Translations under genes and position numbers: made by a program
Shown: positions 6,019 to 25,144 of the stretch, one piece after another
Layout: each line of letters starts with the position of its first letter
Numbering within the stretch: position 1 is the stretch's first letter
Virus record (IMG/VR): IMGVR_UViG_3300045391_003815
Span: 1-38,971 of that record
Source: a virus
Direction: 5' to 3' (one strand)
Length of the DNA: 38,971 nt
Notes under the pieces: model-generated
Told to the model about the DNA's origin: nothing
Databases searched by the model: none
The model's input: only the letters and a program-made list of their open reading frames with translations

Positions 6019-7215
6019 TCAGGTCGCGAGACCCGTCAAAACACCATGGAACGAGGGCGGGATGTACGCCTGGAGGTATCCACCATAGCGCGCATCGTAG
6101 GCGTCCTCGGTGCTAGACCGCAGGAACACCGTGCCGTCATCATCAAACCAGCCGAAGCCGGGGCGGTGATGAACTTCGATGTAGTTGTCGTTCAGGAAGT
6201 ACATGCGATCCGCGTCGCAGAACCGATCCGCGAACACACCCACAGGTCCAGCACTGGACATGAACTCAATCCCTCGGAAAGAGACCTTGCCCTTCAGCTC
6301 AGACGCACGGGGATCGATGATGTACTGCTTTTGATCCTCGAGCTGGTTTAAGAGCTTACGCAGCTGGGTATAAGACGTGATGATCAGGTTCGGCACCTTG
6401 CCGCACTGCTTCTCAACACCGAGCATGCACTCGTTCATCAGGTCAGGGCTGATGCCCGCGCTGGCCGCAGCCTTCTGGAAGGCTTGCCACCGGCGACCGA
6501 TGTTCACCGAGTATTTCGTGCTCGAGGTCGCATCCAAGACGCCTTTCAACCCTTCCGGGTCGTTGTTCTTGGAATTCTGCATGTAAATGCTGTGCGTTCC
6601 CGCACCGATCATCGTGAGGTCGTCTGAGCCGCTGATGCGGGCCAGGGTGACTACTCCCGTAGAAGCATTGACCGCAGTGATCTCCCACACAGACGACAGC
6701 GAGTTAACGTTGACGAAATCCTTCTCTTCGAAGTTCGCCTCATTGAACTTGTAGCTGCCCGTGGTGAGGATCGTGACTACCGGAGCCGTCGCCGTTCCGC
6801 TGGTGCTACCAGAGAACTGGCCGAGGATGCCAGTGCCATCGTTGAAGAGGATGCGAGACATATTGCGCATCCAAGACTCTACGGTCTTCTGCACAACGTG
6901 CTTGGTCAGGCGAACGAACGCGCCTTCATCGTCCTCAGCCGCCTTAGTGGCCTCACGGTCTACTTTACAGACCGCATAGACTTTCTTGGCGCTGATGACC
7001 GCATCTTCATAGTTCGCTTCATTGGCAGTGGGAAGCGAGCCGGAACCCACGCCGCCACCGAACGAGGTCGGGACAGCAACGTCCATGCGTTTGCCGGTAA
7101 ACTTATAAGATTTCTTGACGCGACCAAGCAGGACAGTTGCCGAGTTATACGTGTTGTCACTCAGCTTGCCGTACTTGATCTTAAATAGATTTGAGGCATC
7201 TGTTAAATCGTACAT
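6019..7215 (-). CDS. Major capsid protein (398 aa)
   Basis: Lies directly after the scaffold-like gene; GGAGG RBS 8 nt upstream of the ATG; size and composition typical of HK97-fold capsid proteins. Confidence 0.8.
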   Translation of the reverse strand: MYDLTDASNLFKIKYGKLSDNTYNSATVLLGRVKKSYKFTGKRMDVAVPTSFGGGVGSGSLPTANEANYEDAVISAKKVYAVCKVDREATKAAEDDEGAFVRLTKHVVQKTVESWMRNMSRILFNDGTGILGQFSGSTSGTATAPVVTILTTGSYKFNEANFEEKDFVNVNSLSSVWEITAVNASTGVVTLARISGSDDLTMIGAGTHSIYMQNSKNNDPEGLKGVLDATSSTKYSVNIGRRWQAFQKAAASAGISPDLMNECMLGVEKQCGKVPNLIITSYTQLRKLLNQLEDQKQYIIDPRASELKGKVSFRGIEFMSSAGPVGVFADRFCDADRMYFLNDNYIEVHHRPGFGWFDDDGTVFLRSSTEDAYDARYGGYLQAYIPPSFHGVLTGLAT

Positions 7216-21325: not shown

Positions 21326-21548
21326 ACCCTAACCCATGCCCCCGCCCCCGCCGACGCCCTATATCCAATCCTGGACGCTATACCGCCCCGTTCTAACCCG
21401 CCCCACGGCCTATATCGCCCTATACCGCGTCCCGTCCCCCCGTCCCTGCAGCTGCCACGTCCGACTAGCCGCGTCCCCGTTGCCTTAGCGGGCTAGCCCT
21501 GATCGTTTGATCAAAGTGTTGACGGACGCCCCGCCCCGCCCTATACCC
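21326..21548 (+). repeat. C-rich, G-poor tract with repeated CCCGCCCC and C(C/G)CTATA(T/C)C units
   Basis: CTATA units at 21357-21366, 21377-21384, 21409-21416, 21418-21426 and 21539-21548, all in the same orientation. Confidence 0.8.
21519..21547 (+). promoter_or_regulatory. Candidate promoter for the downstream early genes
   Basis: TTGACG (21519-21524), 17-nt spacer, TATACC (21542-21547); preceded by palindrome tttgatcaaa carrying two GATC sites; the -10 is weak. Confidence 0.4.
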
Positions 21549-21736
21549 GACTAGCGCGCTGTTTATATCAGCGCGGGTACCATGCCGATAAGGGGGCCCT
21601 TCGGACGTCCGGGGGGCCCCTGATACGTGCCCGTAGATCGGGGCTAGGGCTGTTGCGGGTATTCCCACACTCTACGTCCCGTTTAGTTGAGGGGCCCGCT
21701 AGTTCAGGTGAACAGGCTCTAGTCCCGATCTAGGGA

Positions 21737-22083
21737 TACGTGGCTTTATAGCAGGGTATTAGGCGCGTAGCTGCATAGAGGGTCTAGGTACGTGGCCCCC
21801 TATTGTGTGGCTGTTGTGGCCACTGCCTAGTGCCCTGCTATATACGCACGTGTCTAGAGCGCTGCTATAGGCTTGCTTGTTTCCCACTGTGTAGCTCCCC
21901 TACACAGACTGATGGCCCATAGCAGCGCTATAGGTATGTACGTTGTGTACGTGGCCTATAGATCCCCACGGCAGAGTACGTGTACGTAGCTCATCCGGCG
22001 ATTAAACAACACTGGGTGCTGGTTCGGGTTGGTGTACGTGTGCTCTGTACGTGGGCTGTTCTTTGACAATGGAGGTGTACGTG
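21737..22083 (+). repeat. Iteron-like array of (G)TACGT(G/T/A) motifs, all in one orientation
   Basis: Copies at 21737, 21788, 21938, 21947, 21976, 21982, 22034, 22047 and 22077, of which six are exact GTACGTG. CACGTG also occurs at 21847 and TACGTG at 21624. Confidence 0.85.
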
Positions 22084-22437
22084 AAGACTCAACGAAAGGG
22101 TTTGCACATGGTCTGCATAGGGGACATGGCCGTTGCTGAGCTACACGGCAGCCAGATCTGTACGTTTAATCGTAGAGAAAGGCTGCTGATGATAGGGCAC
22201 TTTGGCTGGCCCACAGCTAGTACCGCTAAGGCGATCAACGCTTTTTTCGAGCGGTACGAGATCAGGGGCAGAGCCTATAAGCGTGGTGAAAACGTGTACG
22301 TGGATATAGAGGGTTGCTGCAAGGAATTCACTCTGGCAGCTAGCCCTGCAATCCTGGATCTGGATGAGTATCAGATCCCTGAGTGCACAGTGTACTGGCC
22401 TACGAAAAAGGACGGCTTGGAGGTGGGCAATGGCTGA
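22069..22437 (+). CDS. Hypothetical early protein (about 122 aa; start at ATG 22069 or GTG 22081)
   Basis: GGAGG (22071-22075) lies 5 nt upstream of the GTG at 22081; contains IGHFGWPTASTAKAINAF. Confidence 0.55.
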   Translation: MEVYVKTQRKGLHMVCIGDMAVAELHGSQICTFNRRERLLMIGHFGWPTASTAKAINAFFERYEIRGRAYKRGENVYVDIEGCCKEFTLAASPAILDLDEYQIPECTVYWPTKKDGLEVGNG

Positions 22438-22699
22438 CTACCAAGCTGTACTAGCTGACGTAGAGTCAGGGACTAGCGTTAAAGAGGCTGTGCTCAAGCA
22501 CGGCGGTAGCGTGGGCTCGTACTACGCCTGGAAGTCTAAGCAAAAGGCTGGCAAGCCTAAGACTAGGAAACCCAAGGTAACTACCCTGGAACTACCCGGT
22601 CTTGGCCTGTCTGGCCCTAGCCTGGAGATCCGTGGTGAGCCTGAGTCTCTAGCTAGCTTCCTAGTGTTCCTAGGCAAGAAGCTAGGGGGTGGGCAATGA
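22430..22699 (+). CDS. IS66 Orf1 (TnpA)-like HTH protein (89 aa)
   Basis: GGAGG lies 6 nt upstream of the ATG at 22430, and the ATG overlaps the upstream stop. N-terminal HTH is GTSVKEAVLKHGGSVGSYYAWKSK. C-terminal TLELPGLGLSGPSLEIRGEPESLASFLVFL resembles the IS66 Orf1 C-terminal pattern. Confidence 0.5.
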   Translation: MADYQAVLADVESGTSVKEAVLKHGGSVGSYYAWKSKQKAGKPKTRKPKVTTLELPGLGLSGPSLEIRGEPESLASFLVFLGKKLGGGQ

Positions 22700-22920
22700 A
22701 CGATAGGCCACGGTATAGCCGTACTCTCAAGTCATCATCCTACTCAATCTGGTACAACAACACTGCCGTAGGTATCACCATCAACGCGGTAGGCGATGCC
22801 TTAACCGTCAGCTGGCATGAGTGTTTCGAAGACGGTACCCACAGCCCTGATACGCCTTGGTCTGAGCTAAACGATGACCAAAAGCTAACAGTGCTTAAGA
22901 CAGTCTGGAGACACGCATGA
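22696..22920 (+). CDS. Hypothetical protein (74 aa)
   Basis: 4-nt overlaps with both neighbours; shares the initiation string ggtgggcaATG with the previous gene. Confidence 0.55.
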   Translation: MNDRPRYSRTLKSSSYSIWYNNTAVGITINAVGDALTVSWHECFEDGTHSPDTPWSELNDDQKLTVLKTVWRHA

Positions 22921-23258
22921 CACGACTGATCCGCATCTTCCAGGATGCTGACCTACGCTGCAGTGACCTAGGTCTAACTGAGCTAGCTGAAAAGGCTAAG
23001 ATCAAGACTGACGAATTGCAGCCAGGCGAGATCCTGATCTTCGTCAACGTCAAGGCTACCATGGTGAAAGTGCTAGCTAACTCTGGCTATGGGCTTGTCT
23101 ACGCTGGCTATCGCAGTCAGCACGGCAGGCTGGAGCGCAGAGCGCTGAAGCACATTCCCGCTGCTTTCGGTGGTGGAGTGATCAACTATGACAAGGCACT
23201 AGCTGCAACCCTAGAAGAACTTCTTCCTGACAAGAAACGCCGATCAGACAAACCCTAG
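22917..23258 (+). CDS. IS66 Orf2 (TnpB)-like protein (113 aa)
   Basis: Size and the pattern DLRCSDLGLTELA...LQPGEILIFVNVKATMVKVLANSGYGLVYAGYR resemble IS66 Orf2 (DMR..gLa...P.sGhlFvF.nrr.d.lKvL.wd..G). Confidence 0.45.
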   Translation: MTRLIRIFQDADLRCSDLGLTELAEKAKIKTDELQPGEILIFVNVKATMVKVLANSGYGLVYAGYRSQHGRLERRALKHIPAAFGGGVINYDKALAATLEELLPDKKRRSDKP

Positions 23259-23348
23259 ATTCAGACAAGGCGGCGTTCCTTCTTGTCCAGCCTGGCCCCG
23301 TTTTCTCCTCTGGGGCCGGGCTGTTCTACCTCCATATTAACTGAAAGG

Positions 23349-23645
23349 ATGTACGTGGTGAAAATTCAAATTGAGGTTTCTGAGAAGAACGAAGGCACTG
23401 AATCTCCCTGGTGGATGATTGTTGAACCGCTCAGAGGCAGTAGCAGGAAGGCTGAAAGCGTAGCTCACTGCATCACAGGCCCGTTCTTTAGCAGGGAAGC
23501 TGCTGAGAGGGAGCTGCAGTCTAGAAGCTATGATTATCACAAGGACGCCATCGTTTGGTGTGCCTCTGGATATCACTCAGGTCAATACAAGCTAGCCTTA
23601 CGTTCTGAAAAAGCAGCACAAGAATTGAATCGCTTCGGTCAGTGA
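23349..23645 (+). CDS. Hypothetical protein (98 aa from the ATG at 23349)
   Basis: The track start at 23283 is a TTG inside a hairpin region; the ATG at 23349 is preceded by gaaagg; contains SPWWMIVEP...GPFFSREAAE. Confidence 0.55.
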   Translation: MYVVKIQIEVSEKNEGTESPWWMIVEPLRGSSRKAESVAHCITGPFFSREAAERELQSRSYDYHKDAIVWCASGYHSGQYKLALRSEKAAQELNRFGQ

Positions 23646-23888
23646 CTCACCGTGATGATGCTCTTTGGCAGGCTTGCTGCTGACAGAGCTATCCCCCTAC
23701 CCCCTTACTACTATTCCCTGGGTTACTGCCCTGTGTGGCCAGCTTATTTGCGTTTGCTGTGCCGTTCTCTGCAGCCAATCAAGCGATAGCCAGTAAGCTA
23801 CTTGCCTCCATACCCCTGTGAGTCGCTGGAGGGTCTCTGCTGCACGTCATGCTCCCCGTATAGGATGCCACTGACCACGCTGCGTCTA

Positions 23889-23918
23889 TTGACGCTCTGT
23901 TACAGTGCACTTTATAGC
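23889..23918 (+). promoter_or_regulatory. Candidate orphan promoter inside the 566-nt ORF-poor gap
   Basis: TTGACG (23889-23894), 18-nt spacer, TATAGC (23913-23918); the -10 is weak. Confidence 0.35.
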
Positions 23919-23924
23919 CCCACT

Positions 23925-24125
23925 GTGAGCATGCGTGACTGCTCTTATCCAGGGCTGTTTGTGTTCAGAAAGAACGCTACTATCTTTGCAGAAGATGTGT
24001 TGTGAGATCAATAGAAATCTTTTACACTGCCTTTTGATCCCGTCCAAAAACAGAAGAACAACTTTAGAATATATTCACCCCCTGGTACCACTGCCCTAGT
24101 GCTCTACCAGGGGATTTTTCTTTTT
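23925..24125 (+). ncRNA. Candidate non-coding transcript of about 200 nt, ending at a strong intrinsic terminator
   Basis: No RBS-preceded ORF lies between the candidate promoter and the terminator. The only ATG ORF is 24 codons with no SD, and the 67-aa track ORF uses a TTG with no RBS. Confidence 0.3.
24079..24125 (+). terminator. Rho-independent terminator
   Basis: 9-bp stem cccctggta / taccagggg, 17-nt loop, then atttttcttttt. Confidence 0.8.
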
Positions 24126-24141
24126 GTCGCCGCACTGTGTG

Positions 24142-24169
24142 TTGACCTCTGCTGTGTCGCCTATACAAT
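24142..24169 (+). promoter_or_regulatory. Sigma-70-type promoter for the replication/recombination genes
   Basis: TTGACC (24142-24147), 16-nt spacer, TACAAT (24164-24169). Confidence 0.6.
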
Positions 24170-24211
24170 CAGCCCAATCATTAACCAAAACCACTATACA
24201 AAGGACACACA

Positions 24212-25144
24212 ATGTCATTCACAGTACGCAAGGCTGTACGGAAAAATCTGCCACTGAAGATTGGGATCTCTGGCCTCTCTGGCTCTGGCAAGACCTACTC
24301 CGCCCTGCTCCTGGCCAAAGGCCTGGCAGGTACCGGAAAGGTAGCCGTACTAGACACCGAGAATAGACGCAGCGAATACTATGCTGACGTTACTGACTTC
24401 GACATCGTGCCGTTCGCCGAGCCCTATAGCCCTGACCGCTACGTCCAGGCCATCAAGCAGCTCGAGAAGGAATACGCTGTCATTATCATCGACTCAGCCA
24501 GTCATGAGTGGGATGGCATTGGTGGCTGCCTGGATATGAGTAAGGCTAAGGGTGGTAAGTTCCAGGACTGGGGTATCATTAGCCCGCTCCACAAGAAATT
24601 CACTGATGCCTTGCTAGGCTCCCCTGCCCACATCATTGCTACTGTGCGCCAAAAGAAGGAATTCAGCATGGGCGAGGGCAACAACGGTAGGACCAAGGTG
24701 GAGGCTGTAGGCACGAAGCTGGTACAGCGTGACAACTTCGAGTACGAGTTTGCCGTGCTGTTCGAAGTGCAGATGAACCACAAGGCCCTAGCCAGCAAGG
24801 ACAACACTAGACTGTTCACCACTGAGGTGCCGTTCACTCTTGATGAACAGACAGGGATTAGGCTGCGTGAGTGGAACGAGAAGGGCCAGGTGGCGCCTAA
24901 GACCCAGGAGATCCCTGGCACTAACACTGCAGTGACCACCATCAGCGAGGCACAAGCTAAGAAGCTTTGGGCTGTAGCCAAGGAGCACAAGTGGTCTACC
25001 GATGAGGTGAAGTGGCTATTGTCAAAGTACAAGGTCACACAGTCTTCTGAGATCCGCTGGGATGAGTTTGATGGCGTCCTGGCCTGGCTCGAGATGGGCT
25101 ACCAGAAGGCCTTTGCTCAGTCACAACAGAGAGCCAACAGTTAG
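24212..25144 (+). CDS. Sak4-like / AAA_24-type RecA-fold ATPase (310 aa)
   Basis: Walker A ISGLSGSGKTYSALLLA, then VLDTENRRSEYY, and Walker B-like VIIIDSASHEWDG. Confidence 0.8.
   Translation: MSFTVRKAVRKNLPLKIGISGLSGSGKTYSALLLAKGLAGTGKVAVLDTENRRSEYYADVTDFDIVPFAEPYSPDRYVQAIKQLEKEYAVIIIDSASHEWDGIGGCLDMSKAKGGKFQDWGIISPLHKKFTDALLGSPAHIIATVRQKKEFSMGEGNNGRTKVEAVGTKLVQRDNFEYEFAVLFEVQMNHKALASKDNTRLFTTEVPFTLDEQTGIRLREWNEKGQVAPKTQEIPGTNTAVTTISEAQAKKLWAVAKEHKWSTDEVKWLLSKYKVTQSSEIRWDEFDGVLAWLEMGYQKAFAQSQQRANS

Follow-up and report, generated by a model that had tools for sequence, protein, structure and literature searches.

The phage genome held as IMG/VR record IMGVR_UViG_3300045391_003815 (38,971 nucleotides (nt), the whole of which is referred to here as the window) carries, in its early operon, two small genes of which one encodes a transposase-type helix-turn-helix (HTH) protein, designated P0001, and the other a protein, designated P0003, that is very probably a remote homologue of TnpB/Orf2 of the IS66 family of insertion sequences (ISs). 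Based on the homology of P0003, its coupling to an HTH partner, the lack of any transposase and the recombination genes that neighbour such pairs, we propose that the pair represents a putative two-protein DNA-binding/adaptor module that would serve recombination or replication of the phage. Its mode of action is inferred, and the probability of this reading is put at about 0.45. The partner genes form part of a string of three:

22430..22699, plus strand: P0001, 89 amino acids (aa), an HTH protein of the HTH_Tnp_1 type
22696..22920, plus strand: P0002, an ORFan of 74 aa flanked by the partner genes, with an ATGA overlap at both ends
22917..23258, plus strand: P0003, 113 aa, TnpB-like, a remote homologue of IS66 TnpB/Orf2

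A preliminary description of this stretch had proposed three coupled genes of 89, 74 and 113 aa at 22430-23258, joined by 4-nt overlaps, and both the coordinates and the 4-nt ATGA overlaps at the P0001/P0002 and P0002/P0003 junctions were confirmed. Shine-Dalgarno sequences (GGAGG, GGGGG and GGAG) are located 6-7 nt upstream of the starts of P0001, P0002 and P0003, and the in-frame coding log-likelihood is positive for all three genes, being lowest for P0002. Contig pieces from soil metagenomes (four runs from four studies, all dated 2020 and possibly belonging to one campaign) are identical to the phage within positions 21500-24300, at low depth, and span both P0002 junctions, from which it follows that the gene arrangement is not an assembly artefact of the phage record; the presence of identical pieces in soil metagenomes also identifies soil as the habitat of the phage. 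No RNA run was among the sequencing runs listed for it.

With regard to P0003, direct comparisons gave scores below the limits of the curated families, as it matches PF05717 (TnpB_IS66) at E 0.002 and 18.5 bits against a curated cut-off of 26.6, and the NCBIfam model NF033819 (IS66_TnpB) at E 1.5e-4 and 21.6 bits against a cut-off of 50; by this measure the protein lies outside the curated IS66 TnpB family. When all six frames of the genome were scanned with PF05717, a single place was highlighted, at 22941-23135 (E 7.6e-5). No PHROG family was matched by P0003 at E<=1, BLASTP against the TnpB of ISEc8 produced no match, and a word-indexed database contained two close relatives alone, at 90% and 83% identity. 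An exhaustive profile search of 1.84 billion cluster representatives recovered 385 proteins at E<=1e-3, 62 of them at E<=1e-10, and the family size is accordingly given as 385 clusters at 50% identity, with 149 members aligned (alignment A2). Family members are approximately 105-160 aa in length, and the 113 aa of P0003 fit the TnpB/Orf2 range of about 100-120 aa. When the 149 aligned members were scanned singly against Pfam, PF05717 was matched by 69 (best E 8.8e-7) and no other family recurred.

Profile-profile comparison was performed against the ISEc8-type copies of Escherichia coli O157:H7 Sakai (loci L008 and L014-L017), which served as the IS66 comparison set. Using hhalign, the family alignment matched one ISEc8 TnpB of this strain with 82.6% probability (E 9.7e-6, 86 columns) and an alignment of its five IS66 TnpBs with 93.4% probability (E 2.6e-7, 64 columns), while a hidden Markov model (HMM) of the family ranked all five TnpB open reading frames (ORFs) first among the ORFs of their respective loci. 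The language-model features of the ESM Atlas placed P0003 among TnpB_IS66 clusters exclusively (30 of the 30 nearest; top score 0.91, 205 shared features). Of eight family members compared with the PHROG collection, two, P0008 (E 1.2e-5) and P0170 (E 0.02), matched phrog_623 weakly, and neither P0003 nor any of these eight has a PHROG family of its own. The core common to the P0003 family and IS66 TnpB reads D-[LM]-R, G-L, G-x3-[IV]-F and K-h-L, such that D12-L-R14, G19-L20, G37...F42 and K51-V-L of P0003 align with D18-M-R, G/L26, G41...F46 and K55-x-L57 of the E. coli proteins. Since the sub-threshold matches, the profile-profile comparison, the Atlas neighbours and the phrog_623 match all point to the same family, remote homology of P0003 to IS66 TnpB/Orf2 may be taken as established, with a high degree of confidence. 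The proposal in the preliminary description that the 113-aa product is IS66 TnpB/Orf2-like is thus upheld by profile methods. Of the motifs quoted there, LELPG...LEIRGEPESLASFLVFL is present in P0001 and G37-x3-I-F-x8-K-V-L in P0003, although the 'GxLxIF' spacing was one residue off, the actual residues being G-E-I-L-I-F.

The preliminary description had also stated that neither TnpC nor IS ends can be seen in the genome, and this was corroborated by three approaches. A six-frame comparison of the complete genome with PF03050, the profile of the IS66 DDE transposase TnpC, yielded nothing at E<=10; tblastn of the ISEc8 TnpC against the phage genome and five related loci (L002-L006) returned noise only; and the sole pair of inverted repeats bracketing the genes, with 17-nt arms of 76% complementarity (21719/23253), is at the level expected by chance. 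Neither an rve-type transposase nor a tyrosine integrase was found in the phage. Both hallmarks of an IS66 insertion sequence, i.e. TnpC and terminal inverted repeats with a target duplication, are therefore absent from this phage. A search with PADLOC produced generic HTH-level matches only (P0001 to DrmC at E 5.4e-5), and P0002, P0003 and three further family members had no match at all.

In P0001 a transposase-type HTH (residues 7-53) is accompanied by a basic linker and, at the C-terminus, by a short strand-plus-helix motif (LEIRGEPESLASFLVFL). Its match to HTH_Tnp_1 (E 6.7e-5, 23.5 bits, cut-off 24.1) concerns an HTH class that is common to many transposase families. The alignment of P0001 to the ISEc8 TnpA by hhalign reached 22% probability over 34 columns confined to the HTH, and a profile of six C-terminal motifs gave no signal against the E. 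coli TnpA ORFs. A structural neighbour named 'IS66 TnpA' in the Atlas (template modelling (TM) score 0.60) was obtained on a model with a predicted local distance difference test (pLDDT) value of 0.47 and is a lead only. On the basis of its sequence, P0001 is best described as a probable transposase-type HTH protein, and a specific assignment to IS66 TnpA is unsupported. Accordingly, where the 89-aa product had been described as IS66 Orf1/TnpA-like, the transposase-type HTH is supported but the specific assignment to IS66 TnpA is not, and the likeness to IS66 TnpA that had been perceived in its C-terminus ('LEIRGEPE...') was not recovered by the profile test. HMM searches, which had been proposed as a means of checking the description, supplied matches to HTH_Tnp_1 and to PF05717/NF033819, every score being under the curated cut-off.

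The pairing of an HTH gene with a TnpB-like gene is conserved, as is evident from the five related loci that were read (L002-L006, from JGI/ENA metagenomes, two of them short). In four of them (L002, L003, L004 and L006) the TnpB-like gene starts where a small HTH gene ends, or is overlapped by it, and in L005, one of the short loci, a truncated upstream ORF ends with the same C-terminal motif. All five related loci thus have the HTH gene directly upstream of its TnpB-like partner, whereas in the phage P0002 intervenes within the coupled string. Three features recur among the HTH partners: a helix-turn-helix that reads 'SG-x-S-x-x-E/A ... G ... Y-Y/R-x-K/R-K', a basic linker, and at the C-terminus a strand and helix with the motif 'h-h-h-x-G-x-P-E-h-h-x-x-h-h'. 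A profile constructed from the four partners of the other loci identified the P0001 ORF as its sole significant match among 229 phage ORFs (E 5.6e-4), and it is this selectivity, together with the same gene order in the related loci, on which the conservation of the pairing is founded.

The surroundings of the pair in these loci include genes of DNA recombination. In L006 the pair directly follows Gp157 and an Erf annealase, in L003 it follows an exonuclease and a 160-aa protein, and in L002 it is overlapped downstream by an ATPase gene (phrog_1297), with an HNH endonuclease gene 1.2 kb upstream; in L004 it is situated between XRE-type regulators. The 33-kb contig of L006 also contains, approximately 650 nt downstream of the pair (6993-7199), 17 tandem copies of a 12-nt unit (GGGATCGAGTCG) that overlap an 80-aa ORF of D-R-V-W repeats, and this array could be a candidate iteron-like origin or encode a repeat protein.

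P0002 was found to have no relatives among 5.8 billion protein clusters, although relatives of the neighbouring P0003 exist at 90% and 83% identity, and no match in Pfam, PHROG, NCBIfam or PADLOC. Its coding log-likelihood is +0.23/+0.27 per codon, and its position is empty in five of the five related loci. We read P0002, from these sequence comparisons, as a probable later, lineage-specific insertion between the partners, outside the conserved module. The starts of P0001 and P0002 are preceded by a similar element, as follows:

22415..22432, plus strand: ribosome-site/start cassette GG-R-GGTGGGCAATG before P0001, with a near-copy at 22681-22698 before P0002

The cassette pair corresponds to direct repeat D11 (18 nt, 89% identical), and the duplication may be a trace of how P0002 came to lie between the partners.

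Conservation in the P0003 family is complete at N44 (100%) and at least 95% at G19, L20, F42 and F84, and polar conserved positions comprise D12, R14, K51 and R71; a His is present in 83% of the family, with Asp in its place in the clade to which this phage belongs. Because the conserved residues are mostly structural and a well-conserved His is replaced in this clade, P0003 resembles a scaffold for binding more than it does an enzyme, as far as conservation may indicate. The AlphaFold (AF2) model of P0003 (mb4e33b5fc795), generated with a deep alignment, reached a pLDDT of 91.8 and a predicted TM score (pTM) of 0.82, and is ordered beta1-alpha1-beta2-beta3-beta4-alpha2-alpha3 followed by a basic tail. 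Foldseek searches with this model against the PDB and BFVD produced nothing at E<=0.001, and the family profile produced nothing below E 0.5 against PDB sequences. In an all-against-all structural search with VIA the best Z score was 4.5. Approximately 20 of the 50 best VIA rows are SH2 domains (Spt6 tandem SH2, Abl, Crk, Syk, Grb2 and others), which align over residues 4-88 of P0003 with the same order of strand, helix, three-stranded sheet and helix, but at Z scores of 3.0-4.5, below the tool's own meaningful level, with a root-mean-square deviation of 3.2-4.2 A and no sequence signal. An SH2-like arrangement of the TnpB fold is therefore possible, as a topological lead derived from a model and not as evidence.

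Every member of the P0003 family with a listed source derives from a metagenome, and several are located on contigs of 37-44 kb. No match was obtained by tblastn of P0003, P0170 and P0166 against 50,697 GenBank phages; viral contigs (part of IMG/VR) searched with P0003, P0177, P0173 and alignment A4 contained no related loci; and 185,579 genomes, one for each prokaryote species, were scanned with two motifs and contained neither, a result that holds for those motif variants alone. The preliminary description had also suggested that phage genomes be surveyed for TnpC-less pairs, and such pairs do occur in the five metagenome loci, while the P0003 family was not found in the GenBank phages searched. 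A sub-branch of the family (P0156-P0161 and P0164; L004 1385-1858) has a conserved N-terminal extension of approximately 45 aa, PSWIT-x-EK-x-W ... YQPLVT, with no detected domain, and the L004 partner of this extended TnpB-like protein contains two HTH repeats. Two apparent family members were rejected. P0007 (2460 aa, 17 matched stretches) is a giant repeat protein and was matched spuriously through a 'IPLAFDSGDFNYD'-type unit. In P0012 (205 aa, HTH and TnpB-like parts in one ORF) the C-terminal motif of the partner is replaced by unrelated residues in a frameshift-like manner, and a frameshifted gene call is more likely than a true fusion.

The phage record is complete (38,971 bp, direct terminal repeats, completeness rating 100%), and its minus-strand genes recognised by PHROG profiles encode a major head protein, a large terminase, a virion protein and a tail fibre. 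The record represents a tailed phage far from any cultured relative, and at the nucleotide level its 20-26 kb region matched none of the 50,697 GenBank phages. The early/replication side of the genome is a plus-strand block at approximately 20.5-27.6 kb, in which the three coupled genes are flanked by the following:

22069..22437, plus strand: first gene of the operon, 122 aa (ATG at 22069), function unassigned; its stop overlaps the P0001 start by 8 nt
23349..23645, plus strand: 98-aa gene downstream of P0003, without family matches and with a positive coding score
24212..25144, plus strand: Sak4-like AAA_24 ATPase (single-strand annealing/recombination; PF13479 E 2.2e-16, phrog_1366 E 4.9e-79, phrog_124 E 8.3e-10)

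The product of the first gene has weak matches alone (phrog_554 at E 8.9e-4 and Kyano_Gp96 at E 0.07). An ORF-poor stretch of approximately 560 nt begins after the 98-aa gene, and the Sak4-like ATPase, approximately 950 nt downstream of the trio, is the closest gene of known function; no polymerase, primase or helicase was recognisable among the phage genes scanned. A GGCCCC/GGGGCC hairpin with a 12-nt loop is present at 23294-23317, between the P0003 stop and the next gene, and may be a candidate attenuator or processing site inside the operon.

If the pair acts as an adaptor module, P0001 and P0003 would form a complex in which the HTH subunit recognises specific phage DNA and its short C-terminal strand-plus-helix docks onto the TnpB-like subunit, the latter serving as an adaptor that would pass the bound DNA to other machinery. 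The recipient would be the DDE transposase in IS66 and, in phages, the neighbouring Sak4, Erf, exonuclease or ATPase, or parts of the host replisome. In a more far-reaching version, which is doubtful at present, the pair would be a self-contained DNA-targeting module of lytic phages that marks sites and recruits strand-exchange or replication machinery (Erf, Sak4, exonuclease, host replisome), and IS66 would use the same module to bring its ends to the DDE transposase. Were this the case, what IS66 TnpA and TnpB do would become apparent from the phage system, which is simpler and free of a transposase, and the TnpB fold might be an SH2-like adaptor domain of bacteria and phages.

A number of observations weigh against the adaptor-module proposal. 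Both P0001 and P0003 score below the curated family cut-offs, and a specific tie of P0001 to IS66 TnpA is not supported (hhalign 22%, C-terminal profile silent). Foldseek and VIA identified no solved relative of the P0003 fold that would point to an activity, and inspection of P0003 by eye revealed no beta-clamp motif. The linkage to recombination genes is based on three or four contexts among five loci, two of them short. Finally, a plain transcription-factor role fits the same data and constitutes the main rival, according to which the pair would be a regulator of early-operon transcription, with the HTH protein as repressor or activator (e.g. on the GTACGTG words that cluster in the leader and over the starts of the genes on either side of the trio), the TnpB-like protein as co-factor or modulator and no link to recombination. 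This alternative is unlikely but plausible, as P0001 carries an HTH domain, the L004 pair sits between two XRE-type regulators, and TGTACGTG occurs seven times in the genome where 0.85 would be expected, six of the copies lying at 21946-23357, among them one at 22076 and one at 23350, where the genes that flank the trio begin. It is less easily reconciled with the nature of the domain, HTH_Tnp_1-type domains being typical of transposase- or terminase-type DNA-handling proteins and less so of phage repressors, or with the direct coupling of the pair to Erf or exonuclease genes in other loci. The six TGTACGTG copies at 21946-23357 all have the same orientation, the seventh being located at 2226, and the word may be a putative binding site of the HTH protein or an RNA-level signal.

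The early-operon position among small ORFs of unassigned function, the absence of an enzymatic signature from the TnpB-like fold and the abundance of SH2 adaptor domains among the weak structural matches would suit a host-takeover or counter-defence module that binds a host protein or nucleic acid, its likeness to IS66 being that of a shared binding fold only. We consider this improbable, given that PADLOC matched nothing beyond a generic HTH, that the resemblance to SH2 domains, with Z no higher than 4.5, is weak and that the coupling to a DNA-binding HTH protein and the recombination neighbours point to phage DNA and not to a host target. It is very improbable that the P0003 family is unrelated to IS66 and resembles its TnpB through chance or convergence between small beta-alpha proteins: every direct score is under the curated cut-offs, the hhalign match spans 86 columns with a single TnpB sequence but 64 with the five-sequence alignment, and no IS66 TnpB structure exists for comparison, but four independent kinds of evidence, i.e. 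HMM matches, profile-profile alignment, language-model neighbours and synteny with an ATGA-coupled upstream HTH gene, agree on one family and on no other. The order of an HTH gene followed by a TnpB-like gene does mimic tnpA-tnpB, as would be expected of a decaying, functionless remnant of an IS66 insertion that lost tnpC. This explanation is strongly disfavoured, to the point of being scarcely credible, because the family is broad and conserved, with 385 diverged clusters, core residues kept and frames intact. Moreover, P0003 is only remotely related to genuine IS66 TnpB (no BLASTP match, sub-cut-off scores), codon use is phage-like and the starts are coupled, the same transposase-less pair is found in five other contigs, and IS ends are lacking.

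IS66 is one of the large families of insertion sequences and, to our knowledge, the roles of its helper proteins have remained unknown for decades. The present analysis describes a diverged helper branch, found only in uncultured phage-like DNA and kept through at least 385 clusters without a transposase. This persistence implies that the two proteins act independently of transposition. The phages concerned offer a clean system for the study of helper activity, comprising two small genes, no transposase and adjacent recombination genes, and a sizeable family of phage 'hypothetical proteins', missed by current annotation libraries, thereby gains a name. Literature searches turned up no paper that deals with what IS66 TnpB does or with phage pairs of this kind that lack a transposase. 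The roles of the extra ORFs of IS66 have been described as unknown and probably regulatory (PMC3281130), and some IS66 TnpBs carry beta-clamp-binding motifs (PMC3971601).

In comparison with IS66 itself (tnpA-tnpB-tnpC), the phage pair shares the order of a small HTH gene followed by a gene of approximately 115 codons, ATGA-coupled in ISEc8, and P0003 shares the TnpB core D-[LM]-R...G-L...G-x3-[IV]-F...K-h-L. Unlike IS66, the phage is devoid of tnpC, inverted repeats and target duplication, the similarity is visible to profiles only, and the C-terminal helices are unaligned in the deeper comparison; furthermore, the P0003 family was found only in phage-like metagenome contigs and never in the genomes or GenBank phages searched. 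The members of phrog_623 ('transposase') are true IS66 TnpBs in prophages, the ISEc8 TnpB matching this family at E 1.5e-72, and differ from P0003 in being parts of insertion sequences that ride in prophages rather than phage genes. Within the IS66 family, the ISBst12 group of the ISfinder classification keeps tnpC and is without tnpA and tnpB. This group illustrates that the IS66 transposase and its two helper genes are separable, and it represents the mirror image of the arrangement described here, in which a phage keeps a helper-like pair without tnpC.

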